Source of the DNA: an uncultured delta proteobacterium
GTDB taxonomy: Bacteria; Desulfobacterota; Binatia; UBA9968
Assembly (NCBI GenBank): GCA_963816145.1
Contig: CAWFJP010000029.1
Coordinates: forward strand, 288,001-352,000
DNA length: 64,000 nt
Direction of reading: 5' to 3'
This document shows, in pieces, positions 11,569-62,861 of the stretch (the stretch's first letter is position 1; each line of letters starts with the position of its first letter). The translations under genes and the position numbers were made by a program. The notes under the pieces were generated by a model, which saw only the letters and a program-made list of their open reading frames with translations, did not search any database and was not told where the DNA came from.

Positions 11569-11841
11569 GACATTGTCTCCTTATGACGCAGAATAAGATT
11601 CTCATCCGCGCGCGTTCTATGTGAGCAGCTGCCGCTTGGCCGCGTCGTGCGAGTTTATGGAAATCTGTACAGGAAACAGTAGCAAGGTGTCAATCACGGT
11701 TTCGCCTTCCCTGGGCACGGATTCCGGTTGAAATATGTTTTCAGAAATCGCCGATCGAATGTGGCAGGTCGTAGAATTCGCGCGAGATTATCTTGCCAAG
11801 ACTATCCTCTTTGCGTAGGATCGAGAGCGGATACTGCACCG

Positions 11842-15516: not shown

Positions 15517-15614
15517 GGCCGGGGAGACTATAAAAGAAATTAACAGCGGATGCGACATCGAGACCAAGTGTTTTGGCCCTGAAGTGCGCAGCATAAGACT
15601 CCTCTCTTTTGTCC

Positions 15615-18031: not shown

Positions 18032-18163
18032 TGCGTAGCGGCGCCGGCTGACTGATTCGGTATCGCTGGCCACGCCGTCAGTTTATCGCGGCGTTTTTCT
18101 GCCAGGTTGTTGAAACTTGCCGGCTGCGGTTGTTACATGTTTTTTCAAGATTTACGGAGGTGC

Positions 18164-19219
18164 ATGATGGCAAAGGTAACAGGTTTCATCGATGCCGATG
18201 GCCACGTGGTGGAAGCCGACTCCGAGCTGCTCGATTTCCTGCCGGCGCCGTTCAAAGGGCGGGACGATCTGATGGCGTTCCCGTTTTTCCCGACGCTCGA
18301 CGGCTTTCATCGCCAGGCTCGGCGGATACTTGACGGCAAGGGACGTTCCATCGCCAAAGCCAGCCTCAAGGAATGGCAACAGTTTCTCGACGAAGACGAG
18401 ATCGCCTGGTCGGTGCTCTATCCGACCACCGCTTTGACCTTCGGCTTGGTGCGCGACAAGGATTGGGCCTATGCGCTGGCGACCGGCTACAACAATTATC
18501 TCTACGAAGGCTTCACCAAATCGGAAAAACGCTTAAAGGGCATGGCACTGTTGCCCCTGCAGGATATTCCCGCGGCGGTCAAGGAGCTGCGCCGCGCGGT
18601 TAAAGAATTGGGCTTTGTCGGCGGGATCTTGCCAGCGGTGGGGTTACGCCAGCCGTTCGGCGACGAAAGGTATTTCCCGGTTTATGAAGCGGCTCAGGAT
18701 CTCAATGCGCTGCTCGCGGTGCACGCCGCGCCAACCCAGGGTATCGGCGTCGACGGCTTCGACCGGCTCATCGAAGTGCGCACCTTGAGTCATGGCTTCG
18801 GCCAGATGATTCAGATCACCAGCATGATCTACAGCGGCGTGTACGACAGGTTTCCCAAGTTGAAGGTCGCCTATGCCGAAGCCGGCTGCGGCTGGGTGCC
18901 GTATCTGATGGAACGATTGGATTTGGAGTACGAACACCGCCCCAACCAGGCGCCGGATTGCAAGAAGGCACCATCGGAGCATTTGAAGAGCGGCCGGATT
19001 TTCATTCATTGCGAGTTGGAGGATCGGGGCATCCCGCAGGTCGCCCAAGTCTTGCGCGACGATATACTCTTTTGCGCCAGCGACTTTCCCCATGAGCCTC
19101 GCAATGAATTTCGCGACAACATCGAAAAATTCATGACGCGTGAGGATGTCAGCGCGGATATCAAGCGCAAAATTTGTTTCGAGAATCCCAAACGGATGTA
19201 TCCGTTGGCGCTGCAGTAA
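18164..19219 (+). CDS. Amidohydrolase_2 family protein
   Basis: IDADGHVVE, VLYPT, EAGCGWVP, ASDFPH, ENPKRMY; GGAGG RBS. Confidence 0.87.
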   Translation: MMAKVTGFIDADGHVVEADSELLDFLPAPFKGRDDLMAFPFFPTLDGFHRQARRILDGKGRSIAKASLKEWQQFLDEDEIAWSVLYPTTALTFGLVRDKDWAYALATGYNNYLYEGFTKSEKRLKGMALLPLQDIPAAVKELRRAVKELGFVGGILPAVGLRQPFGDERYFPVYEAAQDLNALLAVHAAPTQGIGVDGFDRLIEVRTLSHGFGQMIQITSMIYSGVYDRFPKLKVAYAEAGCGWVPYLMERLDLEYEHRPNQAPDCKKAPSEHLKSGRIFIHCELEDRGIPQVAQVLRDDILFCASDFPHEPRNEFRDNIEKFMTREDVSADIKRKICFENPKRMYPLALQ

Positions 19220-20754: not shown

Positions 20755-21756
20755 ATGTGGACTTGGAATTATTCGATCATCTTCTTGGCAATGCTGATCG
20801 GCGCCATTCCGGCGCCGCTGCCGGCGCAAAAGCTCGATCGCGCGGTGCTTGCCTTCGGCTCCACCGGTCCAAACTTGACGACCTTCTGGCTGGCCCGTGA
20901 AGCCGGCCTGTATAAGCAGCATGGCCTCGATGTCGATGTGGTATTTTTTCGCGGCAGCACTATCGCGATCAACGCGCTTGCCACCAAGGATGCTCACTTC
21001 GGCGCATTTGGTGCGAGCTCGGCGGTGCTTGCCCGAATGGGCGGCTTGGACACGGTGTTGGTCGCCACCGCGGCGCCGGGCTTGTTGTTTTATCTGGTGA
21101 CGAAGAAGGAGATCAAATCGGCGGCGGATTTGAAGGGCAAGCGGATCGGCGCAAGCCGGCCCGGCACGGACTCCGATCTCGCCGCTCGCGTTGCCGCGCA
21201 GCAATTAGGGCTCGGCGAAAAAGATATTCAGGTCATTGCGATGGGCACGGACAACGAGCGATTAGCGGCGATGAGCCAAGGGGTCGTTGACGCGACTGTG
21301 GTCACGGTCGGCGGCTACGTGGCGGCGCAAAAGCTCGGCTTTCACTCGATCCTGGATCTCTCGCAAGCGAACATTCCCTACGAAGCGGCCTCAATGATCA
21401 CCACGCGTTCGCTGATCAAGGAAAATCCCGAGATGGTTCGGCGATTCATCAGAGGATTCGTCGCGGCGATTCAATACGCGCAGACCCATCGAGAGGCGAC
21501 ATTGAAGGTTTTGAGCAAGTACATGCGCACCACGGACGCCGATATCCTGAACGCCAGTTACGATCAGTACGTCGGGCGGGTGATTCCGCGGGTGCCGTAC
21601 GTGAGCGAAAAAGGCTTGCAGGCGGTGATCGATTTCATCCGGCAGCGCAATCCCCAAGCCGCCAATGTCAAACCGCAGGATGTCATGGACAATCGCTTTA
21701 TCAAGGAGTTGGACGACAGCGGTTTTATCAAAGCTCTGTATAGCGCCAAAAATTGA
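20755..21756 (+). CDS. ABC substrate-binding protein (NMT1/SsuA-like)
   Basis: Signal peptide, GLYKQHGLDV, DLKGKRIG, ENPEMVRRF, DDSGFIKALY. Confidence 0.85.
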   Translation: MWTWNYSIIFLAMLIGAIPAPLPAQKLDRAVLAFGSTGPNLTTFWLAREAGLYKQHGLDVDVVFFRGSTIAINALATKDAHFGAFGASSAVLARMGGLDTVLVATAAPGLLFYLVTKKEIKSAADLKGKRIGASRPGTDSDLAARVAAQQLGLGEKDIQVIAMGTDNERLAAMSQGVVDATVVTVGGYVAAQKLGFHSILDLSQANIPYEAASMITTRSLIKENPEMVRRFIRGFVAAIQYAQTHREATLKVLSKYMRTTDADILNASYDQYVGRVIPRVPYVSEKGLQAVIDFIRQRNPQAANVKPQDVMDNRFIKELDDSGFIKALYSAKN

Positions 21757-28169: not shown

Positions 28170-29171
28170 ATGCTTGCTCCTGGTTTGTTAGCTTTCTTAG
28201 CATGCGTTCTGACTGCCAGTGCAGCGGTGGAGGTGTCGGCGCAAGTTAAGCCGGAGAAATTGCGTATCGGCTATGCCGCGCGCGCCGTGGCGCACTCGGT
28301 GCCGTTCGTCGCCAAGGAGGCGGGCTTTTTTGCCGAGGAAGGGATTAACGCCGAGATTATCCATACGGCGGGATCGATAGCACCGATGGCTTTGGCGGCT
28401 AATGAAGTCGATATGACGATCATGTCGGCCTATCTGATGATTCCGGTCTCCGTGCAGAATCGCGATGTCGTCATGCTCGGCGGATTTTCCCGTTACGCTT
28501 CGATGGTGTTCGTGGCGCGCCCGGATATCAAGAAGCCGCAGGATTTGAAGGGTAAGATAGTCGGCATTCAGCGTCCCGGCGACGCTTACGAGAAAAGCGC
28601 CCGTTTCGCCTTGAAACATATCGGCCTGGATGCCGACAAAGACGTCACGCTGCTGGCCCTCGGCAGCAATGACGTGATGTGGGGCGCGCTCAATACCAAT
28701 CGGGTGGCGGCCACCGTGCTGTCGCCGCCGGGCACGCTGTTCGCGCGCAAAGCCGGCATGAATTTCATGGTCGATTTGACCGACTTGAAGTTGGAATATC
28801 AGGGCTCGACGATCACCACGCGCCGTTCTCTCGTTCAGAAAAATCCCCAGCTCGCGACCCGGGCGATGCGCGCGATCGTCCGCGGCGTGCATCTGTTCAA
28901 GACGCGGAAAGAAGAGACCACGAGAATCTTGAGCAAGTTTCTCGGCACCAAAGATCCTGACGGATTGACCGAGTCTTGGGAGTACGCGGCGAAAATGCCG
29001 GCCAAGCCCTACGCTTTTGAGAGCGCCGTGCAAGCGGTGTTGGATCATTTGGCCGAAGGCCAGCCCAAGTACGCGCAGTACAAGCCCGGCGAATTCATCG
29101 ACGCGCGCACCCTCGTGGAAATCGACAAGAGCGGCTATATCGACAAGCTTTACGGCGGGCAGGCGAGATAG
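28170..29171 (+). CDS. ABC substrate-binding protein (NMT1/SsuA-like)
   Basis: Signal peptide, [28 protein letters not shown]. Confidence 0.85.
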
Positions 29172-37522: not shown

Positions 37523-37688
37523 AAGAACTCCTTTTTGTGGGTTGATTTAGTTCCTATTGCAACGGCGGCGAAATGTCTAGCGGTTATTGAGGCCGATTCC
37601 ATTCGTTTGCTTGTCATCCATTGCAAAGCGCGTTTGTGGCGGTGTATATCGCAGGAAGATTAGTTGTGACATGGGGAGGAAAAGGAAC

Positions 37689-38786
37689 ATGCAAGGAGTA
37701 GTCGATGCCGATACTCATATCGCCGAGCCGGAGGCGATGTGGCAATTGATTGACGAGGAGATGGCGCCGCGCCGGCCGGTGTTGGTGGACTTGCCGGAAG
37801 ACACTTGGTTTGGCGATCGCAACGCTCTGTGGCTGATCGATGGACAGATTTTCCCCAAGCCGGCAGGCAAGGGCAGTTATCGGCTGGTGACGCCGTCGGC
37901 GCAGAAGGCGGAAAAAGTCCGCGGCGATATCGCCATCGCCAGCCGTGAAGTCGCCAACGTCGAGGCCCGCGTGAAAGATATGGACCGTCTCGGCGTGTCG
38001 GTGCAGGTGATCTATCCGACGCTGTTTTTGGTTTACATCACTGACGATCCGGAACTCGATACCGCCCTGGCCAAAGCCTACAATTCATGGCTTGGCAATG
38101 CTTGCGCCAAGTCCAATGGCCGGCTCAAGTTTGTCGCGGTGTTGCCGCTGCGCTCGATCTCGGAATCGCTCAAGGAGATGAAGCGAGCCAAGGATCTCGG
38201 CGCGGTGGGAATCTTCTTTCGCGGCATCGAGGGTGACAAGACTCTCGATCATCCCTATTTTCATCCGGTCTACGAGCAAGCGGCCAAGCTGGGCTTGCCG
38301 ATCAGTATTCATACCGGTTCCGGCGCGCCCTGGATGTTGCCGTACTTCGAGCATGCGCGGAACCACACCTTTGCCCATGGGCGGGCGCTGCCGATCTTCG
38401 CTTTCCGGGATTTGCTCGCCAATCGCATTCCCGAGAAATTTCCCGGGCTGCGTTTCGGCTTCATCGAAGCGTCGGCGGGCTGGGCGCCGTTCATGATTCA
38501 CATTCTGCGTCGCCTGTTCAAAGACCGGCCGCAATACCAGAACAGCGCCGAGCTGTTTCGGGCATCCAACATTTTCATTGCCGCCGAGGCCGACGAAGAC
38601 ATTCCCTACCTCGCCAAATGGATCGGCGAAGATAACATTGTCATCGGTTCCGACTACGGCCACAACGATCCGTCGGCGGAAGAGAAGTTGGTCGAGAGCC
38701 TGCAGAAACGGGAAGACATTCCGGAGCCGTTCGCGAAAAAGATTCTCTGCGACAATCCGCGCCGGTTGTACGGCTTGGATGCGTAA
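37689..38786 (+). CDS. Amidohydrolase_2 family protein
   Basis: VDADTHIAE, VIYPT, EASAGW, GSDYGHND, DNPRRLY. Confidence 0.87.
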   Translation: MQGVVDADTHIAEPEAMWQLIDEEMAPRRPVLVDLPEDTWFGDRNALWLIDGQIFPKPAGKGSYRLVTPSAQKAEKVRGDIAIASREVANVEARVKDMDRLGVSVQVIYPTLFLVYITDDPELDTALAKAYNSWLGNACAKSNGRLKFVAVLPLRSISESLKEMKRAKDLGAVGIFFRGIEGDKTLDHPYFHPVYEQAAKLGLPISIHTGSGAPWMLPYFEHARNHTFAHGRALPIFAFRDLLANRIPEKFPGLRFGFIEASAGWAPFMIHILRRLFKDRPQYQNSAELFRASNIFIAAEADEDIPYLAKWIGEDNIVIGSDYGHNDPSAEEKLVESLQKREDIPEPFAKKILCDNPRRLYGLDA

Positions 38787-45909: not shown

Positions 45910-46875
45910 ATGGTTTTTCGACTCGCGGTGGCGGTTTGGACGTTTGTTGCTGGGTGCAGTTTCTTAAGCCCTGTTGGCGCGCAGCCTTTGCGCATCAGTT
46001 ACTCCGGCGTTGCCGGGCAGAATCTGGCGATCTGGGTTACGTACGAAGCCGGGCTGTTCAAGAAGTACGGGCTCAATCTGGAAATGTTGATGATCGCCGG
46101 CGGGGTGACCAATCTCCAGGCGCTGATGGCGGGGGAGATCGCTTTCGTCTATCAGGGCGGAGCTTCGCCAGTGCAGGCGATTTCGCAAAACGCCGATCTG
46201 ACGATCCTCGCCACGGCTTATGGCTTGATGCCGTACGGAATCGTTACCGGCAAGGGCATTCAGACTGCCGCCGACCTCAAAGGCAAGCGCGTGGCGGTGT
46301 CGCGAGTAGGCGGCATCGAGGAGACTGCCATTCGTTTTGCGCTGGATAAACTAGGTGTTGGGGCGCGCAACGTGACCTTCATTCAAACCGGCGCTGATCC
46401 CGTGCGCATCGCCGCTGTCGAATCGGGTGTGGCCTCCGCTGCGGCGTTGGCGCCGCCCGGGCTCTTCGGCGCGACCGCGCGGGGCCTAAACTTGCTGACC
46501 GACCTTGGCACGCTCAATATTCGCTACCCGGCCTCGGTAATCTCCGCGCGCAAGACTGCGCTGACGTCGGAGCGGCCATTGGCGAAACGCTTTCTCATGG
46601 CGCTGGTCGAAGGCTTGCACGTCTATCATCAGAACAAGAGCCTGGCGATTAAAGCATTGCAGAAGTATACCCAGCAGAACAACGCCGAAATCTTGTCCAA
46701 GTCGTACGATTACTTCGTCAAGAACACGCCGCTGGTGCCGTTGTCTGACGTAGTAACGTTCGAAAACGCTCTGCCCACCGACAAGCCGAGCGAGCGGAAG
46801 CCGCAAAGCTTTTACGACAACTCGATCCTAGAAGAGCTGGTGCAAGAAGGGTTCGTGAAGAAAATCGGTCGCTGA
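45910..46875 (+). CDS. ABC substrate-binding protein (NMT1/SsuA-like)
   Basis: AGGAGG RBS, signal peptide, GLFKKYGL, DLKGKRVAV. Confidence 0.85.
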   Translation: MVFRLAVAVWTFVAGCSFLSPVGAQPLRISYSGVAGQNLAIWVTYEAGLFKKYGLNLEMLMIAGGVTNLQALMAGEIAFVYQGGASPVQAISQNADLTILATAYGLMPYGIVTGKGIQTAADLKGKRVAVSRVGGIEETAIRFALDKLGVGARNVTFIQTGADPVRIAAVESGVASAAALAPPGLFGATARGLNLLTDLGTLNIRYPASVISARKTALTSERPLAKRFLMALVEGLHVYHQNKSLAIKALQKYTQQNNAEILSKSYDYFVKNTPLVPLSDVVTFENALPTDKPSERKPQSFYDNSILEELVQEGFVKKIGR

Positions 46876-47086: not shown

Positions 47087-47263
47087 TCAGCCGGTGATCT
47101 CGTAGCGCACGTTGGTCGGGCCTTCGACGCGGCGGTGGGCGCCGATTTCGAAATTGTAATTGCCCTGTAAAACTTTCCCCGCGACGCGCTCGGAGCGGAG
47201 GATTAGGCCGTAGGATTTTCCTGGGCCGCCTTGTTCGGCGTGGATGTCAAAGGGTGGTACTAG
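47087..47263 (-). pseudogene. 3' half of a cysteine-dioxygenase-like cupin gene split by an IS
   Basis: LVPPFDIHAEQGG..EGPTNVRYEI matches the C-terminus of the intact paralog 48888-49469. Confidence 0.9.
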
Positions 47264-48330
47264 GAGCCTGTCGGAGAAAGTGTTAAGGGGCAGGTATAAA
47301 AAGTTTTCAGCATGGCCATTTTTTCTGGACACCCAATTGATCGAGACTATATTGGTGTGCATGAGAACGTTCAAGTCGTACCAACCTGATCAACTTTACT
47401 TGTTGCCGCCAGCGCTTCGCGATTGGTTGCCCGAGGGGCACCTGGCGCTGTTTCTCAGCGATGTGGTGGATACGCTGGAATTGGGGCCGATCTTTGATGA
47501 CTACGAGCAGGGCGATGGGCGAGGGCAGCCGCCGTATCATCCGGCGATGATGGTGAAGCTACTGATCTATGGGTACTGCATGGGCAAGCCGTCCTCGCGC
47601 AAACTGGAGCGGGCGAGCTATGAGGAGGTGGGGTATCGGGTGTTGTGCGCAGAGCAGCATCCGGACCATGACAGCATCGCCGAGTTTCGCAAGCGCCATC
47701 TTAAAGCGTTAGCCGGACTGTTTGTGCAGGTGCTGCGGCTGTGTCAGAGAGCGGGGCTGGTGAAGTTGGGGCATGTAGCGCTGGACGGGACCAAGGTCAA
47801 GGCCAACGCATCCAAGCACAAGGCGATGAGCTACGAGCGGATGTGCAAAGCGGAGCAGGAATTAGAGCTTGAGGTCAAGCGGCTGCTGGAGCTGGCCGAG
47901 AAGGTCGATGGGGCGGAAGACCAGGAGTTTGGGGAAAAGCGCGGGGATGAGTTACCGGCGGAGTTGGCGCGGCGAGAGAGCCGGCTTGCCAAGATTCGTC
48001 AAGCGAAGGCTGAGCTGGAAGAGGAGGCGCGCCAGCGCGCCGAGCAGGCTGCGGCCCAGGCGCAAGCAGAGATTGAAGAGCGACGGCTCAAGGAAGAGCA
48101 GACGGGGAACAAGGCCAAGGGGCGAGAGCCCAAGATAAACGATCCCCAACAAAGCGTGCCCCAACCCAAAGCACAGAGAAACTTTACCGATCGGGATTCA
48201 CGGATCATGAAGGACGGGGCGACGGGGGGCTTTGTTCAAGGGTACAATTGCCAAGCGGTGGTCGATAGCCATGCCCAGATCATCGTGGCGGCGGCGCTCA
48301 CGCAACAGGCCAATGACAAGCAGCAGTCCG
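47264..48330 (+). mobile_element. IS1182-family insertion sequence, right end missing
   Basis: Begins GAGCCTGTCGGA right after CTAG; transposase motifs YHPAMMVKLLIYGY, PDHDSIAEFRKRH, ALDGTKVKANAS, NFTDRDSRIM, GYNCQ; ends abruptly after ANDKQQ with no matching right IR. Confidence 0.9.
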
Positions 48331-48359
48331 GTCGACTTTGCCGGGAGTGCCTTGGGTGA
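47361..48359 (+). pseudogene. IS1182 transposase, C-terminally truncated
   Basis: Lacks the distal DDE residues; the frame runs into the antisense host gene. Confidence 0.85.
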
Positions 48360-49555: not shown

Positions 49556-50533
49556 CTATTTAATCATCTCTCGGCGGACTTCTTCAAGCGGTCGGAAGTC
49601 GACGATCTTATTCAGCGGAACATCGCCGATGCTTTTGTCGGCGCGCTGCATCTGGCTCATGTGGACTTTCAGTCCGGCGTCGCTCGCGGCGCCGTCTTTG
49701 CTGAAGGACTTCGCCAGCGATGCGTAGGACTCCTTGGCTGTGTTGGCATCGACGCGCCACTCCCGTTCGAGGATCTGGATCGATTCCTCCGGTCTTTCGC
49801 GCGCGAAGATCAGTCCGCGATAGAGTCCGCGCAGCAAGCGTTTGGTGAGATCGCGCTTTTCACTGAGTTGGCGTTCGGTGGTGGTAAAACCGTTGCTGGG
49901 AAACTCGATGGCGTCGCCCAGGAAAAGCAGTTCGCGGAAGCCTTTTTGTCTGAGAAGCACATTGTCCGGAGGGATGGCGATGGTGGCGTCGACCGAGCCG
50001 GCGGCGAGTGCGGCGACCCGGGTGCTCGGCAGGCCGATCATGATCAGCACGGCGTCCCGCTGGGCGTCCATGCCTTCACGTGTAAAGGCGATCTTGGTGG
50101 CCAATTCGATGGTATCGCCGAAGCGGACGATGCCGATGTATTTACCGCGCAGCTCTAGAATCGACTTGAACTGCGGTTTGGCCATCAAGAAATAGTTGGG
50201 CCGCGCCGCGCCAAAAAAGATCGTCTTGATCGGCGCGCCCTTGGCAGCAAGGCGCAGTGCCGAGTCGGCGACGCCGTGGTAGTCGACGTCGCCGGAAAGT
50301 AGCGCGTTATGGGCTAGCTGCGGCAGCATGATCGGCGTGTCGATGTCGATGTTGTCGTCTTTGAAGAAGCCTCTATGGATCGCGACGTAGAGCGGCAAGT
50401 AGCCCATCGATTTGGCGGGCAGCGCCAGGCGAACACGATCCGCGGCGCGGCATTCTTCGAAACCGCCATTGCCAATAACGATGAGAAACGCAGTTAGGAT
50501 TTTTGAGATATTCCACCGCATCAGATTTGTCAC
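49556..50533 (-). CDS. ABC substrate-binding protein (NMT1/SsuA-like)
   Basis: RGFFKDD, ELRGKYIG, AGSVDA motifs; start uncertain. Confidence 0.82.
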   Translation of the reverse strand: MTNLMRWNISKILTAFLIVIGNGGFEECRAADRVRLALPAKSMGYLPLYVAIHRGFFKDDNIDIDTPIMLPQLAHNALLSGDVDYHGVADSALRLAAKGAPIKTIFFGAARPNYFLMAKPQFKSILELRGKYIGIVRFGDTIELATKIAFTREGMDAQRDAVLIMIGLPSTRVAALAAGSVDATIAIPPDNVLLRQKGFRELLFLGDAIEFPSNGFTTTERQLSEKRDLTKRLLRGLYRGLIFARERPEESIQILEREWRVDANTAKESYASLAKSFSKDGAASDAGLKVHMSQMQRADKSIGDVPLNKIVDFRPLEEVRREMIK

Positions 50534-54528: not shown

Positions 54529-55599
54529 CTATTGGGACGCAGAGCGCCGTTCAATTTCAGGAATGACTTCCTGGCAGATCAGATCGATGGCTTCGTCCCA
54601 GTTGGGCCCCAACGGCGAGGCCATATCGATGATGTCGAAACCATAGGGTTTGGCAGCGCGCAGCATTTCGTCGACGCCGTCGACGCACTCGGCCGGTGTG
54701 CCGGCGATGACGGTGCCGACTTGGGCTAGCAGATCATCGTCGATCAAATCGATCATCTCGTCCACGGTCTTGCCCGAACCATGCGCTGCCGCGACCGATC
54801 TGGCGGTCGCTTCGGGCATGGGTAATTTCAGCAGACGCTGTTTGAGTAGATGCCCCTGGATGAGCGCGCCGGCGCCCATGCGCTTGGCAAAGCGTTTGGC
54901 CGCGGCGCCGTCACGAGACACTGAAATATGCAGATGTAAAACCTTGGTAAATTTACCGCCGTCGTTGCGGGCACGGCGGGCCTTTTCCAATTCTGCCATC
55001 GCCAGGTCGATCGCCCCTTGACGCACCAGCGCGCTCGGAAAAGACAGGTTGCTGACGATCAAGCCATCGCCGATGTCCCAAGCCATCTTGAGCATCTGCG
55101 GCCCGGCGGCGGCGACGAAGATCTCCGGTACTCGGGCCGGGGGAAGGCGGAGAAACGCTTCGGCGTTGGGATCGAGGTGGAAGAATTCAGTGAGGCTGGC
55201 AAATGTGCCGAGCGTAACCGTTTGCCCCGCGAACATTTCCCGTAAAAACAAAATGGTTTCCCGCACCATGGCGACGCGCTTGGTCTTGCGGATCATATTG
55301 GACGACGGTGAACCGGCGCCGATGCCGACGGTGATGCCGCGGTCGCCGGCGAGGTGTGCCAGAGACGCGAAGCTCGATGCCAAATCGACCGGAGTGCGAG
55401 CCCAAGGATGAGTTACCGATGTGCCGACATGGGCGCCGGTACGGCTGATGATTGCGGCCAAGATGACAAAAACATTTTCGTAGGTCAGATGATCCGGCAC
55501 CCAGACTTTGTCGAAAGCGTATTGCTCCAGTGCCTTCTTGGCGTAGGCCGCCATCTCCGGAGCGGTGCAAGGTGGATAGAGTTGGATGCCGAAGCGCAT
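54529..55599 (-). CDS. LLM class (Mer-like, possibly F420-dependent) oxidoreductase
   Basis: MRFGI, FDKVWVPDH, GTSVTHPWARTP, GIGAG, AAAGPQML, GDG. Confidence 0.85.
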   Translation of the reverse strand: MRFGIQLYPPCTAPEMAAYAKKALEQYAFDKVWVPDHLTYENVFVILAAIISRTGAHVGTSVTHPWARTPVDLASSFASLAHLAGDRGITVGIGAGSPSSNMIRKTKRVAMVRETILFLREMFAGQTVTLGTFASLTEFFHLDPNAEAFLRLPPARVPEIFVAAAGPQMLKMAWDIGDGLIVSNLSFPSALVRQGAIDLAMAELEKARRARNDGGKFTKVLHLHISVSRDGAAAKRFAKRMGAGALIQGHLLKQRLLKLPMPEATARSVAAAHGSGKTVDEMIDLIDDDLLAQVGTVIAGTPAECVDGVDEMLRAAKPYGFDIIDMASPLGPNWDEAIDLICQEVIPEIERRSASQ

Positions 55600-56011
55600 G
55601 ACGTTACGGGCCAGCCTGGGTAGTTTACTGTGTAACATAAATTCACGGCTGGGTACTAATAGCTTTTACAAACGGCAACTTCTGGCCGGTGGGCGAAACA
55701 AACGCCGACGGCAGCGCCGCCACCTCGGCTCAATACCTCATATCGCTACCGGCACTGCCATGGTTCTGACACCGTCAGGATATCGTCTTAAAAGCACGGT
55801 CCTAAGCGCAGCTTGAATGCGAATGCTAGTAGCACTTAAAAGCTCAATCATATAATGGGCGATAATACAGGTAGATTTGTTACAAACCTAAAGTGTCGAT
55901 TGCAATTATTGGATTCGCTAGCTCCGGCAGATTTGTAAGCTGTGATGCGATTGGCGCAGGGGCATGTGGTCGGGAGACATCGTCGAGGCTTTTTGCCGTC
56001 CTCTCGGAGTG

Positions 56012-56137
56012 TTGTCAATTTTGTCAAGCATTGACAACCAACTTGGCTTAAATGTCAGTACAGTCACTCAGCGTTACCTAGAACATCCAATTGCTAAACG
56101 TTTCCCAAGTCAGCTATGACGGCAAGTCAGTGATGAC
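56012..56137. promoter_or_regulatory. Candidate enhancer (bEBP) sites, GTCA-Nx-TGAC
   Basis: Perfect TTGTCAA-GCA-TTGACAA (56021-56037), plus GTCAGCTATGAC (56109) and GTCAGTGATGAC (56126). Confidence 0.5.
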
Positions 56138-56259
56138 ATGAATAACGGGCATCCTTGTGTCATTTCTAGCAATTTACAATTGGGAATTTCAGATGATTCC
56201 TGGTGAAAGATTTTACCGAATAGGGACAGGGGGGGTCTTCATATGGGTCTCGATCCCTG

Positions 56260-56275
56260 TGGCATGCTTTCTGCT
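56260..56275 (+). promoter_or_regulatory. Sigma54 -24/-12 promoter
   Basis: TGGCATG-CTTT-CTGCT (GG-N10-GC); predicted start near 56286, just before the riboswitch. Confidence 0.75.
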
Positions 56276-56289
56276 CGAATCCCCTTACA

Positions 56290-56363
56290 AGTTGACGCTG
56301 TGATCTGAAATCCCCAACGTGGTCACCATGGGGCTCAGGGAGCGAGTGGTGAAACCGGCAACT
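56290..56363 (+). ncRNA. c-di-GMP-II riboswitch aptamer
   Basis: AGTTG/CAACT closing stem, CGCT/AGCG, TGA/GA kink-turn, TCTGA..CCCC/GGGG..TCAGG stem, loop GGTCACC pseudoknotting with GGTG-AA-ACC. Confidence 0.82.
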
Positions 56364-56384
56364 CATAGTTGCCGGTTTTTTTTT
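56353..56384 (+). terminator. Riboswitch expression-platform terminator
   Basis: AACCGGCAACT-CAT-AGTTGCCGGTT plus T9; the 5' arm is the 3' end of the aptamer. Confidence 0.88.
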
Positions 56385-56422
56385 GTTCGGTTTCAGAAAT
56401 TCTCGAAGGGAGGGTCGAACCG

Positions 56423-56878
56423 ATGTCGTACCACTTGAAGGAAAACAAAGGCCAGAGCGCAGTGGAGTTCACCTTAGGGTTTTTGCTTCTTTATACCGTG
56501 ATCATGGCTGTCGTCGAGTTCTCGCACATGTTTTATACCAAGACGGCTCTACAGCACGCGATAGCTGAAGCGGGCCGTTATATGATCACAGGCCAAGGAA
56601 TCGACCTTACAGGAACCAATCCCAACGCTCGTTTGCAGAAAGTCCAAGAAAAATTCTGCAACAATCTGATCGCTACGGGTCTTCCCTGCGCAAATGTTTC
56701 CTCGCATCTTACGTTGACCTGCGTCGGTGGCTGCACACAACCGGCCGGCGGTCCAGGTCAGACCGTAACTCTCACTGCGACGTATTCGAGATCGTGGTTT
56801 ACCGGGATGTTCAATCATCTATTGCCCAGCATCACTCTTGCCGCGAACACGACTTGGAAAAACGAAATCTATATGTAA
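56423..56878 (+). CDS. tadE: TadE-like pseudopilin
   Basis: KG/QSAVEF prepilin motif, hydrophobic helix, AEAGR; GGAGG RBS. Confidence 0.85.
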   Translation: MSYHLKENKGQSAVEFTLGFLLLYTVIMAVVEFSHMFYTKTALQHAIAEAGRYMITGQGIDLTGTNPNARLQKVQEKFCNNLIATGLPCANVSSHLTLTCVGGCTQPAGGPGQTVTLTATYSRSWFTGMFNHLLPSITLAANTTWKNEIYM

Positions 56879-56896
56879 CTGGCACAGGAGTTCATT

Positions 56897-57559
56897 ATGA
56901 GATTCATACGCAAATACCTGAGTACAAAAAAAGGTCAAAGCCTGGTCGAGATGACGTTTGGTATCCCGATGTTGATTGGTCTGGGGTTCGGGGTTATCGA
57001 GATTGGCAACATGATTAACTCCTATCTGGTGTTAACCCATTTGACCCGTGAAGCCACTAACATTCTAGCCCGTCAGCCCGGAGTTAAAGGCTCGACGCAA
57101 TGGGCGACAAGTGTCAACACGGATTTGAATGCGGTCATCAGCAAGGCAAGCCCGGTCATTAACCCAACTGCCAGCGGCGCTAGAGGGCCGAATCAGTATA
57201 AAATCTACTACTCGATGATCGAGTGGAATACCGCCCCGGGAGCTTGCGATGGTGGACCAATGGCGAATGGCCAGCCGGACAATTACCGGATTCGTCGCAG
57301 CAATACAGGTTGGACCGGCAATGTCACCTGGCAATATGGTTCATTGAGCCGGAATAGCAACTTGGGCAACGATGGAGAGTGTGCCTACCTGCTTTTGCCT
57401 GAGGTCAAGAACCTATCTGCACAGGGGCTTGTTCTCCATGTCATAGAAGTTTTCTATGATTATGCCCCAAGTAAGTTAACTCCGGTGGAAGGCTTCATCG
57501 GTGCTCTCGCGCCCGGAATATTTTATCGCAAAACGGTTTTTATGGATGTTGTCGGGTAA
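56897..57559 (+). CDS. TadE/TadF-like pseudopilin
   Basis: KG/QSLVEM motif, TM helix, REA; AGGAG RBS. Confidence 0.82.
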   Translation: MRFIRKYLSTKKGQSLVEMTFGIPMLIGLGFGVIEIGNMINSYLVLTHLTREATNILARQPGVKGSTQWATSVNTDLNAVISKASPVINPTASGARGPNQYKIYYSMIEWNTAPGACDGGPMANGQPDNYRIRRSNTGWTGNVTWQYGSLSRNSNLGNDGECAYLLLPEVKNLSAQGLVLHVIEVFYDYAPSKLTPVEGFIGALAPGIFYRKTVFMDVVG

Positions 57560-57573
57560 CCACGCGAATTGAG

Positions 57574-58821
57574 ATGACTCGTACCTATGACAAGGAACAG
57601 ATTATGAAGCGCAAAAACGAAAAGGGTCAAGCACTTGTTTTTATCTTGTTATTGTTTGCTGTGTTGCTTTTTCTGGTTGGCTTAGCCAGCGACGGCGGCC
57701 GGGCGTATTTGCTTAGAGCCTCCTTGGCTCGAGTCGTCGACGCCGCGACGATTGCAGCGGCGGCCAAGCTCAATTCACAGGGACTCACCGCGGCTCAAAA
57801 CGCTGCGTGCGATTCGGCGAGGATGAACGGTGTCGCTAATTGCGGTATTTTAAATGTCACTCAGGTGACTACTAACGATGCCGCCGGCAACCCAAAGGAA
57901 GGCGTCAAGGTTACCGCAAACGTTTCAACCCCAACGATTTTTGTCGCCGCCGGTAATCTGCTCGGTTGTACCACCTGCAGTATCATTAATGTCTCGGTTA
58001 GCGCGGTGGCAACCACGGGTGGTACAATCGATCTGGTGACGAATCTCGATAACACGGGGTCCATGGCAGGCTCCAAAATAACCAACGCCAAGATCGGTGC
58101 GAATGCTTTAGTTACGGCTTTAATGCCCAGTGGTGGTTCATCCACAGCGCTCGTCAGTGTCGTGCCTTTTCAGGGATGTTATCGGTCGAGTACAACCGGC
58201 GGTTGTGTCGATGAGGATGAAAACCCGATCAACGGCGGCATGATAGTATCGCTGACTAGTGATGCTTCAAGGCTGCATAACGGCATCAATGCTCTAAGCG
58301 CGCCGGGCGGTTCCGGAACAAACGTTTGCACCGGGCTGAAAAAAGCCCGCCAGAAACTGTTTCAAGCCGGTGTGGCTCGGCCTAATAGCTTGAGATTTCT
58401 AATTATTCTCACGGACGCAGAGAACAATTATGACACGAATCTCCCGAGTGGCGGTGTGGACGCGGCCTGTATTCCGTCCGGAAACAATGACAATGCCCGC
58501 AACCTAGACCTCGGAGTAAAAACCAATGCCCTTGCCACGGAAATCAAAGATCCCGGCTCCGACTCCGATGGGCAATCGGTTGGACAACTAGTGAAAGTCT
58601 TCGTGATCATGTACGGTCCCAACGCAACCGGAACCGTTCCGAGCAATTGCAATGCGACTGGCCTAAGCAGCGGCACTGCGACAAGCCAAAGCTATACAAA
58701 AAATCTTGCACGCTGCATCGCTTCCAGTGCCGGTGATGTTTACTTGGCGCCCAATGCTACAGATATTAGCGCCGCCTTTCAGCAAATTATCAGTCGATTG
58801 CCGGTTGTTTTGGTTAACTGA
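57574..58821 (+). CDS. tadG: TadG-like pseudopilin with von Willebrand A domain
   Basis: KG/QALV, TM, DGGRAY, DAATIAAA; MIDAS-like LDNTGSM, GTN, ILTD; several Cys pairs; start may be 57603. Confidence 0.82.
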   Translation: MTRTYDKEQIMKRKNEKGQALVFILLLFAVLLFLVGLASDGGRAYLLRASLARVVDAATIAAAAKLNSQGLTAAQNAACDSARMNGVANCGILNVTQVTTNDAAGNPKEGVKVTANVSTPTIFVAAGNLLGCTTCSIINVSVSAVATTGGTIDLVTNLDNTGSMAGSKITNAKIGANALVTALMPSGGSSTALVSVVPFQGCYRSSTTGGCVDEDENPINGGMIVSLTSDASRLHNGINALSAPGGSGTNVCTGLKKARQKLFQAGVARPNSLRFLIILTDAENNYDTNLPSGGVDAACIPSGNNDNARNLDLGVKTNALATEIKDPGSDSDGQSVGQLVKVFVIMYGPNATGTVPSNCNATGLSSGTATSQSYTKNLARCIASSAGDVYLAPNATDISAAFQQIISRLPVVLVN

Positions 58822-58889
58822 TTCGCTCGTGAAGCCGTTTTCTGGACTTAGCTTTGTTTTGGTCCAATTACGTGACGCTGATCAAACGC

Positions 58890-58927
58890 AAGGAGGGAGT
58901 CGCGCGTAAGCACGACTCCCTCCTTTT
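58890..58927. terminator. Terminator after the tad cassette
   Basis: AAGGAGGGAGTCG / CGACTCCCTCCTT stem followed by a T-run. Confidence 0.8.
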
Positions 58928-58962
58928 ACATGGCAACGCTGGAACAATTGCAATGATCGCGG

Positions 58963-59036
58963 TTAGTACTCGGTCTGACGCGTGCGTTGGATCTGTTGAT
59001 TGTTACGATTGATGGTCTGCTGGTATTGTTGAATCT
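58963..59036 (-). pseudogene. Duplicated 3' end of the glycine-zipper gene at 60846
   Basis: 70 of 74 nt identical to 60846-60919 by manual count; encodes IQQYQQTINRNNQQIQRTRQTEY*. Confidence 0.85.
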
Positions 59037-59622
59037 TCTTTTGGTTACCGATGAGCAGCCGACTTTTATGCGTCGTGATAGCGCGGCGGAATGTGAGGAA
59101 AATCTGCGATAGGTAAATGATCTCGCGCCTGGCGAAACCAAGGGTTCCTACCATGATACCGCGGGTTTCATACAGGATGTGCCCAGCGCAGGTTACGATT
59201 ATGTCACAGCCAAACATTTCTCGCTTACGACGCCAAATTTCTGCTCGCGGGGATGGCGAATGCCAATGACATTCTTAACGTCGGTCACGGGACCGGCGAG
59301 TCCATCGTCGCCGTCTGTAGCCGCAAGTTGCGGACGGACGATAGCGACGTGCCCGATGATCTCGTCGAAGGCTGGCCCTGTCCTTCCGGGCCCTGTACTA
59401 ATGAGAAGCGGCAGAACGGTAAAGTTTTCATACCGCGGATCTCAAGGGTGATGTAAAACAGCAGTTGCAGGTGATTTTCAATGGGATTGCGGCTATCTTA
59501 AAGCTGCGCTTGCCGGTTTGACTGTGAAACTGATTGGTCGTATTTGACGGGCAGGTTGAGTTATCGAGTGTATCCTCCGATCGTACCGGGTAACGTCGGT
59601 TTTTCTTGGATGCGCGGTTGAG

Positions 59623-60519
59623 ATGGAAAACTTAATTCTTGGAATTTTCGCTCTAGGCTGCAGCATCGTGACTTTGCTCGGTTGGTTGTGGCTTAGTGCT
59701 GAGCGGGACTTGACCAAGACCCGAAGTGAAGCAGCAAGGCGCGAGTCGGAAACGCGCAAGTTCGATGAGGAGCTCAATAACCTAAAACAAACGCTTTTGG
59801 ATCACGAAAAGCGTTTATACAAGTCGGTAAATCACGAGCACGACGTGGCCACTCAGCACAACCGGTTGCGCAGCGATATCGCCGAACTCCGTGGTAAGCT
59901 CGATGAAAGCCAAGGTAAGATATTGGAGGTGGTTGAGGCCAAACGAGCCCAGGCAGTTGTCCAGGCAAGGGGTGGCGGAGATACCGCCGAGTTGGTTCGA
60001 CTTGACGATCGTATTGCCGAACTTGAGCAAGAGCTTGCTAAGGATGAGGCCAAGTTGCGCGAGTTGGATCTTGTGTGCGAGAGACTCGCTGAGGGAGAGC
60101 GGATGCGACAAGCGTTGCGCGAGGAAAGTGCCCGCCATCAGGCTCAACTGGAACATTGGCGCGATCGCAGTATCGAAAGCGAGGAAAGCGAAACGAGAGT
60201 GGCGTTAATTCAAGAGCAGTTCGGCGAACTCTTGACGATGCAAGCCACCTTTGCTGAGGCGCAGCGGCGATTTCACGACGCCTTAGTGAAGTTTGATGGT
60301 TTGATGGATACGCCCTCGAAGGCGGTGGTTCAGACCCCAACCTTCGAGGTGTTTAGAGGCAGTGGCGCCCAAGCGCAGCCGATATCCACCGGCAATGCGA
60401 CTGATAGTAGAAACCCGCAGCAGCCGACAACCCAGTCCGACGTGCGCTTGACAGAGGTGCAGCGGCAGAGCGGGTTTATACCCAGGTTGCGCAACCTCAA
60501 GACGCCAAAGGTTGGCTAG
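59623..60519 (+). CDS. Membrane-anchored coiled-coil protein
   Basis: N-terminal TM helix, then E/R/L/Q-rich heptads. Confidence 0.7.
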   Translation: MENLILGIFALGCSIVTLLGWLWLSAERDLTKTRSEAARRESETRKFDEELNNLKQTLLDHEKRLYKSVNHEHDVATQHNRLRSDIAELRGKLDESQGKILEVVEAKRAQAVVQARGGGDTAELVRLDDRIAELEQELAKDEAKLRELDLVCERLAEGERMRQALREESARHQAQLEHWRDRSIESEESETRVALIQEQFGELLTMQATFAEAQRRFHDALVKFDGLMDTPSKAVVQTPTFEVFRGSGAQAQPISTGNATDSRNPQQPTTQSDVRLTEVQRQSGFIPRLRNLKTPKVG

Positions 60520-60775
60520 GCGGAATTGCCCACGATGATCATTATAAGTGTGGTCGGTATCGTTGCAGGTGCTTTTTTTCGATGCTTAGCAATCGCATTA
60601 CCAAGCCGGGAATTCTTGGAGTTGTGCCTTCGGGATTAGAAAGCACTGCAGCCCGTGGGCCAGCCAATGCCAGTATCTCGGCATCGGACAAATCAGCGGC
60701 GGGTGCGAAATCAGAATCGCAACTCATTTTGCTCCCGAGGCTAGGCCTGCCGATTAAAGACGCTGCATGATAAAC

Positions 60776-60814
60776 AAAAAAAGGGAGTCGGCGATTTCGC
60801 CGGACTCCCTTTTT
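60776..60814. terminator. Bidirectional terminator
   Basis: A-run GGGAGTC / GACTCCC T-run. Confidence 0.8.
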
Positions 60815-60845
60815 ATCTGGTGCTGAATCTACTTGCCGAGCAGCC

Positions 60846-61190
60846 TTAATACTCGGTCTGACGCGTACGTTGGATCTGTTGATTGTTACGATTGATGGTC
60901 TGCTGGTTCTGTTGAATCTGCTGTTGGTTCGTCTGGTATTGTTGCTGCTCTTCCTGCCCTTGCATGTAATCGCCGACCAGTGCGCCAGCGCCCAAGCCGA
61001 CCGCTCCGCCGATCGCCGCGCCTGTCCCTGGCCGGCCCACCGCTGCACCGATGAGACCGCCGGCCGCCGCGCCGCCCAGGGCACCGATACCTGCGCCTTT
61101 TTCACGGGTCGTCAGTGAACCCCCGGAGCATCCAACGAAGATCATGCCGGCGACTCCCAGCGCCATCCATCTTTGCGTCATGACTTTCAT
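60846..61190 (-). CDS. Glycine-zipper lipoprotein with Gln-rich tail
   Basis: Lipobox FVGC, GAGIGALGGAAAGGLIG repeats, AGGAGG RBS. Confidence 0.85.
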   Translation of the reverse strand: MKVMTQRWMALGVAGMIFVGCSGGSLTTREKGAGIGALGGAAAGGLIGAAVGRPGTGAAIGGAVGLGAGALVGDYMQGQEEQQQYQTNQQQIQQNQQTINRNNQQIQRTRQTEY

Positions 61191-61239
61191 ACTACCTCCT
61201 ACGAAATCGATTCGGACCGAAATTAGTTTCTTCTTAAGC

Positions 61240-61255
61240 AGCAATGTCATTGCCA
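61240..61255 (-). promoter_or_regulatory. Sigma54 -24/-12 promoter of the glycine-zipper gene
   Basis: Minus strand TGGCAAT-GACA-TTGCT, about 50 nt upstream of the ATG. Confidence 0.7.
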
Positions 61256-61365
61256 CGCCGCTTAGGTCCGTTTAAGCGGAAGTTTATCGAAATCAGGGAC
61301 CGATTGGACGTAATTGTTGCTGGAGATTTCTCCACTTTCGCTCCAAGTTTGGCCCATGTCGGCGC

Positions 61366-61686: not shown

Positions 61687-61856
61687 ATCGATTCCTCCAA
61701 GATTTTCTACCCTCTGAATCCGATCTTAACGACGCGCGTGCAAAATTACCACTTGCGTCGCCAATTCACCGCGGATAAAAAGGGTTCACGCAGGGAAGGT
61801 TGAATCAGGCCGCAACGCGGGCACTGGAACTAATTCACGATCGAGAAGGAGTAACC

Positions 61857-62861
61857 ATGATTATAGATGTTCATGGACATGTTTCGCCGCCCACCGAGTT
61901 GTGGGCCTACAAGGCGAATATTCTATCCGCCCGGGGATCTCACGGCCGGGGCGGCGTCAACGTTTCCGATGACGAAATCCGCGCGGCGGCGAATCGGAAA
62001 GAAAACTGGGCGAAGGGCCATTTGGATTATCTGAAAGACCATGGCACCGACGTGCAACTGATCTCGCCGCGGCCGTTTCAGCTCATGCAGTCGGAGAAGC
62101 CGGCGAAATTGGTGCACTGGTTTGCCGAGGAATGCAACAATATCATCGCCCGGCAGATGAAGCTATTTCCCAACACCTTTCTCGGAGTTTGCGGTTTGCC
62201 GCAGGCGGCCGGCGAGCCGATTCAAAACGTCTTGCCAGAGCTGGAGCGCTGCGTGAAGTTGGGCTTTGTCGGTTGTCTGTTGAATCCGGATCCTTACGAA
62301 AATGGCGGGCAGGAAGCGCCGCCGCTGGGTGACCGCTATTGGTACCCGCTCTACGAGAAACTCTGCGAACTCGACGCGCCGGCGCATATCCACGGGACTG
62401 GTTCCCGTTCGGAGCGCAGCCCGTACTCGGTTCATTTCATCAACGAGGAAACCATCGCGGTATTCGGCCTGGTCAACTCGGCGGTGTTCCAGGATTTTCC
62501 CAAACTTAAAATCATCGTCAGCCACGGCGGCGGCGCGATTCCTTACCAACTCGGCCGCTTCGAGGCGCCGTCGCTGCGCCGCGGCACGGGCGCGCGCTTT
62601 TCCGACGGCCTGCGTAAGCTCTACTTCGATACCGTGCTCTATACCGAGGATGCCGTGCGCCTGTTGATCAAGACCGTCGGCGCCGACCGTTGCCTGTTCG
62701 GCACCGAGTGCCCGGGCACCGGTTCGTCGGTTGATCCGGCGACCGGACGATCGATGGACAATGTAAAGCCGATAGTGGAGAACATCGAAACTTTGAGCGC
62801 GGCGGATAAGCAAAAGATTTTTAGCGACAACGCCAAGACGGTGTTTAACTTGAAGATTTAG
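61857..62861 (+). CDS. Amidohydrolase, LigJ (4-oxalomesaconate hydratase)-like
   Basis: MIIDVHGH, SDDEIR, ISPR, LPQ, ELERCV..GF.GC.LNPDP, WYPLYEK, HGGGAIPY, FGTE. Confidence 0.75.
   Translation: MIIDVHGHVSPPTELWAYKANILSARGSHGRGGVNVSDDEIRAAANRKENWAKGHLDYLKDHGTDVQLISPRPFQLMQSEKPAKLVHWFAEECNNIIARQMKLFPNTFLGVCGLPQAAGEPIQNVLPELERCVKLGFVGCLLNPDPYENGGQEAPPLGDRYWYPLYEKLCELDAPAHIHGTGSRSERSPYSVHFINEETIAVFGLVNSAVFQDFPKLKIIVSHGGGAIPYQLGRFEAPSLRRGTGARFSDGLRKLYFDTVLYTEDAVRLLIKTVGADRCLFGTECPGTGSSVDPATGRSMDNVKPIVENIETLSAADKQKIFSDNAKTVFNLKI

Follow-up and report, generated by a model that had tools for sequence, protein, structure and literature searches.

We analysed a 64-kb stretch of DNA (hereafter the window; G+C content 56.7%) from an uncultured soil-type bacterium of the Binatia lineage, in which a 785-nucleotide (nt) intergenic region separates a luciferase-like monooxygenase gene (minus strand, 54529-55638) from three plus-strand genes, tadE, tadE and tadG. 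The region carries an aptamer of the class II cyclic di-GMP (c-di-GMP-II) type that overlaps an intrinsic terminator, and our reading, which we hold to be probable, is that the two form an ON switch behind a sigma54-type promoter and gate the tadE-tadE-tadG cassette. Read in the direction of the three genes, the leader presents an inverted repeat, two palindromes, the sigma54-type promoter, the aptamer, the terminator and a ribosome-binding site, followed by tadE, tadE and tadG (Table 1). All elements listed in a first-pass annotation are present, either where it placed them or a few bases away. A transcript would start near 56286 and run almost at once into the aptamer. Without ligand, the terminator hairpin (56351-56379) and its U tract would form and transcription would stop before tadE, whereas with c-di-GMP bound, helix P1, the pseudoknot and the pocket residues would hold the nucleotides of the terminator's 5' arm, the hairpin would be blocked, and RNA polymerase would read on into the cassette. 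The products would be two Tad pseudopilins and a third pseudopilin bearing a von Willebrand factor A (vWA) metal-dependent adhesion module, which would presumably prime a Tad pilus or cap it, with the genes for its machinery lying elsewhere in the genome, such that high c-di-GMP would provide the pilus with an adhesive set of minor pilins.

The aptamer was the sole match in the window to any Rfam family at gathering scores. It matched the c-di-GMP-II model (RF01786) over positions 1-84 of 84 at 53.9 bits (gathering score 53.5, E = 4e-09), in agreement with the first-pass annotation, which had called such an element and named the covariance model as its check. Because this score clears the cut-off by just 0.4 bits, we sought comparison with relatives. 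TadG homologs were taken from Candidatus Binatia metagenome-assembled genomes (MAGs), 37 full-length sequences were aligned, and the alignment was used to scan genomes, with relatives drawn from a collection holding one genome per species. The scan returned 21 loci, comprising the close relatives L001, L006 and L008 (77-84% TadG identity), the more distant L002-L005 and L007 (44-56%) and 13 loci from Chloroflexota (27-33%); the contigs of several loci lack upstream sequence (in L005, for example, the match starts at 733). The genes flanking the cassette in the window are syntenic with those of L001 and L006. With Rfam the orthologous aptamer scored 53.9 bits in L001 and 54.9 bits in L006, and weakly, at 32 bits, in L008. 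When the window was compared with the upstream aptamers of the first two loci (L001a and L006a; b denotes a second aptamer described below), 72 of 74 aptamer positions were invariant, against 23 of 60 positions upstream.

A covariance model that we built from nine aptamers (R1; seven Binatia-type and two Chloroflexota sequences) scored the window aptamer at 100.2 bits. Across these nine sequences, standard pairs occupied 94.6% of the cells of P1, P2, P3 and the pseudoknot, compared with 25.3-44.9% when the 3' partners were slid by 1-3 columns. Compensatory changes on both sides were found in 9 of 23 pairs, and the observed covariation was reached by none of 500 shuffles. Two-sided changes affected four of five pairs in P1, one of three in P2 and three of eight in P3, with 90-96% of cells paired per helix, and the pseudoknot (P4, joining the P3 loop to the 3' joining region) kept seven of seven pairs, with all 63 cells paired in the nine sequences and one A-U to G-C swap. 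Two highly conserved positions of the Rfam consensus are altered in the window, which reads UGGUCAC for UGGGCAC in the P3 loop (G to U) and GUGAAACC for GUGCAACC in the 3' joining region (C to A); since 56323 U pairs with 56352 A in the pseudoknot, the two departures amount to one base-pair swap. These computations establish the identity and the structure of the aptamer.

Several features of the aptamer nonetheless speak against our reading, the narrow margin of the Rfam score being one. Of the P1 pairs in the Rfam model, the outer six are mostly mismatched in the window, where they would fall partly 5' of the predicted transcription start. Most of the covariation sets the two Chloroflexota sequences apart from the seven Binatia-type ones, which are closely related; with an effective number of sequences of 2.11, it reflects few independent events. 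In the more distant loci L002-L005 and L007, no aptamer was detected at E ≤ 0.05 with Rfam or E ≤ 1 with R1. Apart from one match at 16095-16163 on the minus strand (15.3 bits, E = 0.25), which we treated as noise, R1 found no further copies at E ≤ 1 in the window or the 21 loci. DapZ (29.6 bits) and Thr_leader (19.6 bits) also matched the leader weakly with Rfam and were rejected, as they only mirror the terminator hairpin.

The terminator consists of 13 pairs, six of them G-C, closed by a 3-nt loop, and the first four T of its T run are the last bases of the stem. Its 5' arm (56351-56363) lies inside the aptamer and is made up of the final two partners in the 5-bp segment of the pseudoknot (56351-56352), both pocket adenines (56353-56354), two pseudoknot cytosines (56355-56356), the guanine of the pocket (56357) and the 3' strand of P1 (56359-56363), which takes in the overlap of 56353-56363 given by the first-pass annotation. 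Because this arm thus comprises the 3' strand of the pseudoknot, pocket residues and the whole 3' strand of P1, the aptamer and the terminator are mutually exclusive. The terminator hairpin was computed at -18.6 kcal/mol, the nested aptamer helices at -4.8 and the pseudoknot duplex at about -6.2, and the minimum-energy fold of the leader contains the terminator and not P1. As the terminator outweighs the aptamer helices and the pseudoknot, the default state would be OFF, and since an aptamer stabilised by its ligand would prevent the terminator, the element is predicted to act as an ON switch with ligand-dependent read-through. Mutual exclusivity therefore lends computational support to the antitermination-type logic that had been proposed for the element. 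From the end of the aptamer to the start codon there are 54 nt. The terminator is conserved in L001a/b, L006a/b and L008b, and it likewise overlaps the aptamer in L001a/b and in the Chloroflexota loci L016 and L010.

The upstream copy in L008 (L008:4327-4412) is degraded, with the 5' strand of P1 gone, a P2 pair broken, the U tract interrupted and a fold z-score of 0.21, and the second aptamer of that locus is intact. Loss of the U tract went together with loss of the P1 5' strand, a pattern expected if the aptamer and the terminator form one functional unit. The 32-bit copy also raises the question of whether the element in the window is itself a decaying relic without a regulatory role there, comparable to L008 or to the non-functional copies in Clostridioides difficile, in which just 11 of 16 c-di-GMP riboswitches are reported to be functional (PMC6366702). 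Such decay would fit with the earlier loss from the window of both the third tadE and the second aptamer found in its relatives. It would not fit with the state of the element in the window, where helices P1, P2 and P3, the pseudoknot and the pocket residues are all intact, as are the U9 tract and the 13-bp terminator, nor with the contrast in conservation between the aptamer and the sequence upstream of it, nor with three genes that remain open and keep their processing motifs, and we regard a relic as highly improbable.

Our assignment of c-di-GMP as the likely ligand is based on the residues of the binding pocket. In the c-di-GMP-bound structure 3Q3Z, the two guanines are read by A69 and G73, one each, and A70 intercalates between both bases (PMC13715770). 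Mapped by alignment to the Rfam consensus rather than by structure, the window has 56353 A, 56354 A and 56357 G as the equivalents, none of which varies among the nine aptamers. The related family RF03169 (c-di-GMP-II-GAG) is defined here, from the Rfam consensus lines, by a G at the A69 equivalent, reading GAG where the canonical class reads GCA. The window and all nine aligned aptamers read GAA. The window has in common with RF03169 an A at the C68-equivalent position and a GGUC loop and differs from it in GAA versus the consensus GAG, so that the guanine-recognising A69 equivalent is unchanged. Because the window has A and not G at this position, the aptamer likely belongs to the canonical class and c-di-GMP is its likely ligand.

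Some doubt about the ligand remains, since small changes in the class II fold shift specificity among cyclic dinucleotides: an engineered class II derivative with a one-nucleotide deletion binds 2',3'-cyclic GMP-AMP (cGAMP), and a crystallised variant binds 3',3'-cGAMP at 11 nM (PMC13715770). If the aptamer, though genuine, sensed another cyclic dinucleotide such as 3',3'-cGAMP or had relaxed specificity, the cassette would answer another signal. Two observations lean that way and to that extent against c-di-GMP control. The second aptamers of the relatives score best with RF03169 (54.5, 52.5 and 50.6 bits, above their RF01786 scores; L008b reaches 52.0 bits with RF01786), which makes the subfamily assignment unstable, and the C-to-A change next to the pocket is common to the window and the RF03169 consensus. 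The A69 equivalent is nevertheless A in the window and in all nine aptamers, the equivalents of A70 and G73 are kept, and the C-to-A change is matched by the G-to-U change in the loop, making it a swap of a pseudoknot pair and not a change of the pocket. We consider another ligand very unlikely, and c-di-GMP remains our preferred assignment.

Upstream of the aptamer, TGGCATGCTTTCTGCT is the sole match in the window to TGGCAY-N5-YTGCW; it is a full match with the exact GG-N10-GC spacing anticipated by the first-pass annotation and fits the TGGCAC-N5-TTGCW type of -24/-12 element described for sigma54 promoters. Across four orthologous leaders, the -24 hexamer (6/6) and the -12 hexamer (6/6) are invariant, 12 of 12 positions together, whereas conservation falls to two of five positions in the spacer, 21 of 60 in the 60 nt upstream and three of 13 between the promoter and P1. 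A slightly relaxed pattern recovered the orthologous site in all three close relatives and matched two other places in the 21 loci, both on the minus strand. The -12 element and P1 are 15 nt apart in L001 as in the window, and a scan of the plus strand from 55600 to the start codon found no sigma70-like site. A sigma54-type promoter is likely on these grounds. Transcription would then begin near 56286, about 12 nt past the -12 GC and 4 nt before the well-paired inner P1 at 56290, which agrees with the earlier placement of the aptamer about 4 nt after the start.

Judged by its count, the pattern is weak, as at least one match occurred in 20 of 100 shuffles of the window; because the -24 and -12 elements are invariant while the spacer and the flanks drift, the comparative footprint is stronger than the motif count. 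Other results also tell against our reading. The motif is missing from the distant loci L002-L005 and L007, and none of the 75 open reading frames (ORFs) in the window that we scanned for protein families is an rpoN, an enhancer-binding protein gene or a GGDEF/EAL gene. As the promoter was identified by sequence only and the proposed activator sites are not conserved, the riboswitch could be as described and yet lie behind a promoter that does not depend on sigma54, in which case the conserved TGGCAT...CTGCTC would be another signal, with no activator input and no AND gate. The frequency of the pattern in shuffled sequence agrees with such an alternative; the exact spacing, the full match, the invariance of the elements amid drifting sequence, the recurrence of the site at the same place in 3/3 relatives and its rarity elsewhere, the fixed distance to P1 and the missing sigma70-like site do not, and we judge it unlikely. 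The sigma54 reading, which we retain, would imply a need for an activator. Of the AND gate of activator and c-di-GMP put forward in the first-pass annotation, the promoter type is the part that is conserved; the activator half derives from that promoter type, with palindromes that are unconserved and a window that holds neither an activator gene nor rpoN.

Those palindromes, two adjacent copies of GTCA-N4-TGAC, are present as annotated and have no further copies in the window. They sit in a 15-nt direct repeat (CAAGTCAG..ATGAC) with a spacing of 17 nt. Further upstream lies an inverted repeat (GTTGTCAAT/ATTGACAAC) with 9-nt arms that are 100% complementary across a 10-nt gap and that align weakly with the relatives. 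The palindromic elements of the window are located at -125 to -250, a plausible distance for activator sites. Their count is within chance, since at least two GTCA-N4-TGAC copies occurred in 20 of 100 window shuffles, and an exact search for the palindrome returned no match in L001, L006 or L008, a further point against activator control. The upstream regions of the relatives (500-650 nt) align poorly except near the promoter. We therefore rejected the palindromes as conserved activator sites, given their absence from three of three close relatives and the poor upstream alignment.

Two further inverted repeats link the upstream region to the aptamer. One is a 15-nt repeat, 93% complementary, between 56180-56194, upstream of the promoter, and 56303-56317 on the 5' side of P3; because its upstream arm precedes the predicted start, it would be relevant only if transcription began further upstream. 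The other (56249-56259/56336-56346) would allow a 5' extension to pair with the aptamer and was rejected as a chance occurrence, its upstream arm not being conserved in the relatives.

Pfam and fold assignments agree with the first-pass annotation that the leader is followed by tadE, tadE and tadG. A conserved GAAGGGAG ribosome-binding site precedes ATG 56423, which is the start of the first gene and corrects the TTG at 56369 in the ORF list, and the gaps between the three genes are 18 and 14 nt. All three proteins have a prepilin-type motif followed by a hydrophobic helix, and both TadE-like proteins show the combination of PF07811, a G/xxxxE prepilin-peptidase motif and a hydrophobic helix that marks TadE/TadF. 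The third protein combines a Tad N-terminal domain with a vWA fold and a metal-ion-dependent adhesion site (MIDAS), as in TadG proteins with a vWA module; its processing motif deviates in having F, not E, at position 5 after G. The MIDAS-like residues D159-x-T161-x-S163, T249 and D281 are invariant in the 37 aligned homologs, with threonine in place of the first MIDAS serine. No NCBIfam family was assigned to any of the three proteins.

The AlphaFold model of TadG (predicted local distance difference test score, pLDDT, 82.1) contains a vWA domain, a beta-sheet and, at its N terminus, a long helix. Among PDB chains, Foldseek matched it best to the vWA pilus-tip adhesins SpaC, PitA, Mfa5 and RrgA together with PilB of Streptococcus sanguinis, a type IV minor pilin that is bimodular and includes a vWA module (E = 1e-09 to 9e-07; query-normalised template modelling (TM) scores 0.33-0.43; 13-15% sequence identity). 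The likeness to these proteins lies chiefly in the vWA domain, where TadG carries the D-x-T-x-S form of the MIDAS with threonine for the first serine, and the model adds a long pilin-like N-terminal helix. An adhesive minor pilin is the best reading of TadG. The fold is adhesin-like, and the tip placement in the description of the products as pilus-tip adhesins is a prediction from fold similarity.

Among the 75 ORFs, Pfam detected no other Tad families (prepilin peptidase, encoded by cpaA in Cpa/Tad systems, CpaB/C/E/F or TadB/C), and no Flp-like small ORF (G-x4-E-Y/F followed by a hydrophobic stretch) was found in the window. The cassette is therefore an orphan within the 64 kb, as had been annotated. 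A strong hairpin after tadG likely marks the end of the operon in the genome of the window.

The close relatives have a longer arrangement. In L001, L006 and L008, tadG is followed, about 16-20 nt past its stop, by a second aptamer of class II type that has a terminator of its own (50.6-54.5 bits with the GAG-variant model), giving the order aptamer 1, tadE, tadE, tadG, aptamer 2 with terminator, and a third TadE-like gene (L001:11405-11953; PF07811, 2.3e-05). Aptamer 2 would act inside the operon, since the space in front of it is too short for a promoter. Downstream of tadG in the window, no second aptamer was found by blastn, Rfam or R1. The window copy is a reduced form, a point that the first-pass annotation did not make, in which the second aptamer and the third tadE are replaced by 124 nt with the strong hairpin (window 58822-58951). 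As L002-L005 and L007 have neither the aptamer nor the sigma54 motif, the arrangement appears confined to a sub-clade.

Beside this site, an 84-nt direct repeat (93% identical; 58963-59046 and 60846-60929) brackets about 1.88 kb that are absent from L001 and L006. In the segment, an ORF of 298 aa (59623-60519) has coiled-coil-type matches, all below threshold, and one of 187 aa (60542-61105, minus strand) has no family; a glycine-zipper gene at 60846-61256 (minus strand; PF13488) has the repeat as its 3' end. From its sequence, the segment looks like an insertion or rearrangement adjoining the place where the second aptamer was lost.

Sense-oriented c-di-GMP aptamers also precede cassettes of this kind in Chloroflexota, in 4 of the 13 loci. 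Class II-type aptamers lie about 0.5-0.8 kb 5' of the TadG match in L016 (55.6 bits) and L010 (42.3 bits, variant model), and class I-GGC-type aptamers stand directly before TadE/TadG-like arrays on Dehalococcoidia MAG contigs in L013 (4393-4474, 76 bits) and L018 (6477-6560, 71.8 bits). In all four loci, the first ORF downstream of the aptamer is TadE-like and is followed by a TadG-like gene. The remaining nine Chloroflexota loci were covered by Rfam at gathering thresholds and by R1, a search that weak class I copies could escape.

Table 1. Features of the leader and cassette in the window, and the second aptamers of its close relatives.
Feature	Position	Strand	Details
Inverted repeat GTTGTCAAT / ATTGACAAC	56011-56019 and 56030-56038 (whole 56011..56038)		candidate protein-binding site
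Two adjacent GTCA-N4-TGAC palindromes	56109-56120, 56126-56137 (56106..56137)		about 125-150 nt 5' of the -24 element; candidate activator site
Likely sigma54-type promoter TGGCATGCTTTCTGCT (TGGCAT-N5-CTGCT)	56260..56275	+	GG 56261-56262, GC 56273-56274
c-di-GMP-II-type aptamer	56284..56369	+	Rfam RF01786; well-paired core 56290-56363
P1	56290-56294/56359-56363	+	
P2	56296-56298/56342-56344	+	
P3	56305-56313/56331-56338	+	
Pseudoknot	56321-56327 with 56348-56352 and 56355-56356	+	
Intrinsic terminator (expression platform)	56351..56384	+	stem 56351-56363/56367-56379, loop CAU, 9-T run 56376-56384
Ribosome-binding site GAAGGGAGGG and start codon ATG 56423	56405..56425	+	18/21 positions invariant in four leaders
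tadE-like pseudopilin 1 (151 aa)	56423..56878	+	PF07811 1.9e-11; motif KG/QSAVEF at residue 10
tadE-like pseudopilin 2 (220 aa)	56897..57559	+	PF07811 2.7e-07; motif KG/QSLVEM at residue 13
tadG-like pseudopilin with C-terminal vWA adhesin module (415 aa)	57574..58821	+	PF13400 4e-06, VWA (PF00092) 4.8e-07; motif KG/QALVFI
Strong hairpin then UUUU after tadG	58890..58927	+	-29.5 kcal/mol (58890-58925)
Second aptamer in L001	L001, within 11268-11953		region includes the third tadE
Second aptamer in L006	L006:11240-11324		
Second aptamer in L008	L008:6745-6829		

Elsewhere in the window, the only mobile-element signature among the scanned ORFs was a DUF772 transposase domain (3.3e-16; ORF 47244-48359). 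A histidine-specific S-adenosylmethionine methyltransferase (Methyltransf_33, 6.8e-94; 14488-15594, minus strand) and a DinB_2 plus FGE-sulfatase protein (7859-9229, minus strand) form a pair that we take to resemble EgtD and EgtB of ergothioneine synthesis, and another FGE-sulfatase ORF lies at 11728-12651. Paralogs of two families are scattered over the window, four NMT1/THI5-like binding proteins (20755-21756, 28170-29171, 45910-46875 and 49556-50533, the last on the minus strand) and three Amidohydro_2 proteins (18107-19219, 37587-38786 and 61800-62861). No Rfam family, including the NMT1 motif riboswitch, was matched beside either set at gathering scores.

The mechanism itself is not new. 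In C. difficile, the class II c-di-GMP riboswitch Cdi-2-4 lies 5' of pilA1, in the type IV pilin operon CD3513-03, and is an ON switch (PMC6366702 and PMC11477304), in line with the clostridial class II riboswitch that the first-pass annotation names as activating type IV pilin genes by antitermination. The leader described here is alike in aptamer class, in its predicted logic of terminating without ligand and reading through with it, and in the kind of target, pilin genes that promote adherence; the aptamer class, the overlap logic and c-di-GMP riboswitch control of pilin or adhesin genes are all established (PMC6366702 and PMC11477304), as is a terminator-overlap ON switch at pilin genes in C. 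difficile. Cdi-2-4 differs in belonging to a Firmicute and in that its target is a major pilin, that of a type IVa-like pilus, whereas in the window a vWA-bearing TadG and Tad pseudopilins are the targets, neither a major pilin nor machinery lies nearby, the host is of the Binatia lineage and the aptamer follows a sigma54-type promoter; the relatives add a second aptamer within the operon.

A link between class I (GEMM) aptamers and pilus genes, cpaA among them, dates from 2007 (Table 2 of PMC1950547); that paper also describes terminators that overlap the 3' strand of the aptamer, ON logic and tandem arrangements. These aptamers resemble the leader described here in placing a c-di-GMP sensor with overlap-type ON logic before pilus genes and in occurring in tandem, and differ in having another aptamer fold and in that Table 2 names cpaA and neither tadE nor tadG (PMC1950547). 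Class II c-di-GMP riboswitches are described as mainly clostridial (PMC12564702), and the words pili, pilus, Tad and c-di-GMP are absent from the Binatota genome paper (PMC8262859). Among open-access papers and bioRxiv preprints, we found no account of Tad pseudopilin/TadG cassettes preceded by a class II aptamer, be it in Binatia or in Chloroflexota, nor of such an aptamer in company with a sigma54 promoter. The claim of novelty for Tad pili in the first-pass annotation is nevertheless too strong, given the class I link to cpaA and the ON switch of C. difficile, both already known (PMC1950547 and PMC6366702).

If confirmed, these results would extend the class II c-di-GMP riboswitch to an uncultured Binatia lineage and to Chloroflexota and would add a type of target of which we found no account, namely cassettes of Tad pseudopilins and a vWA adhesin that stand apart from the pilus machinery. 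They would provide a testable link from c-di-GMP to surface attachment in organisms that cannot be grown. A general rule is suggested by the serial two-aptamer operons and by TadE-TadG cassettes being preceded, convergently, by aptamers of either class. A wider reading, which we put forward tentatively and hold to be possible but doubtful, is that c-di-GMP riboswitches gate only a detachable module of minor pilins and adhesins, the tadE-tadG cassettes separate from the machinery, and not the Tad machine, so that the messenger sets what primes and tips the pilus, by a wiring that arose repeatedly and was elaborated with serial aptamers and a sigma54 layer. If so, the wiring would have been repeated with class II aptamers in Binatia and, in Chloroflexota, with aptamers of the class II and class I-GGC types alike, the two serial aptamers of the closest relatives could set two c-di-GMP thresholds and thereby a graded tip composition, and the Binatia sub-clade would layer a sigma54 activator input on top of the riboswitch.

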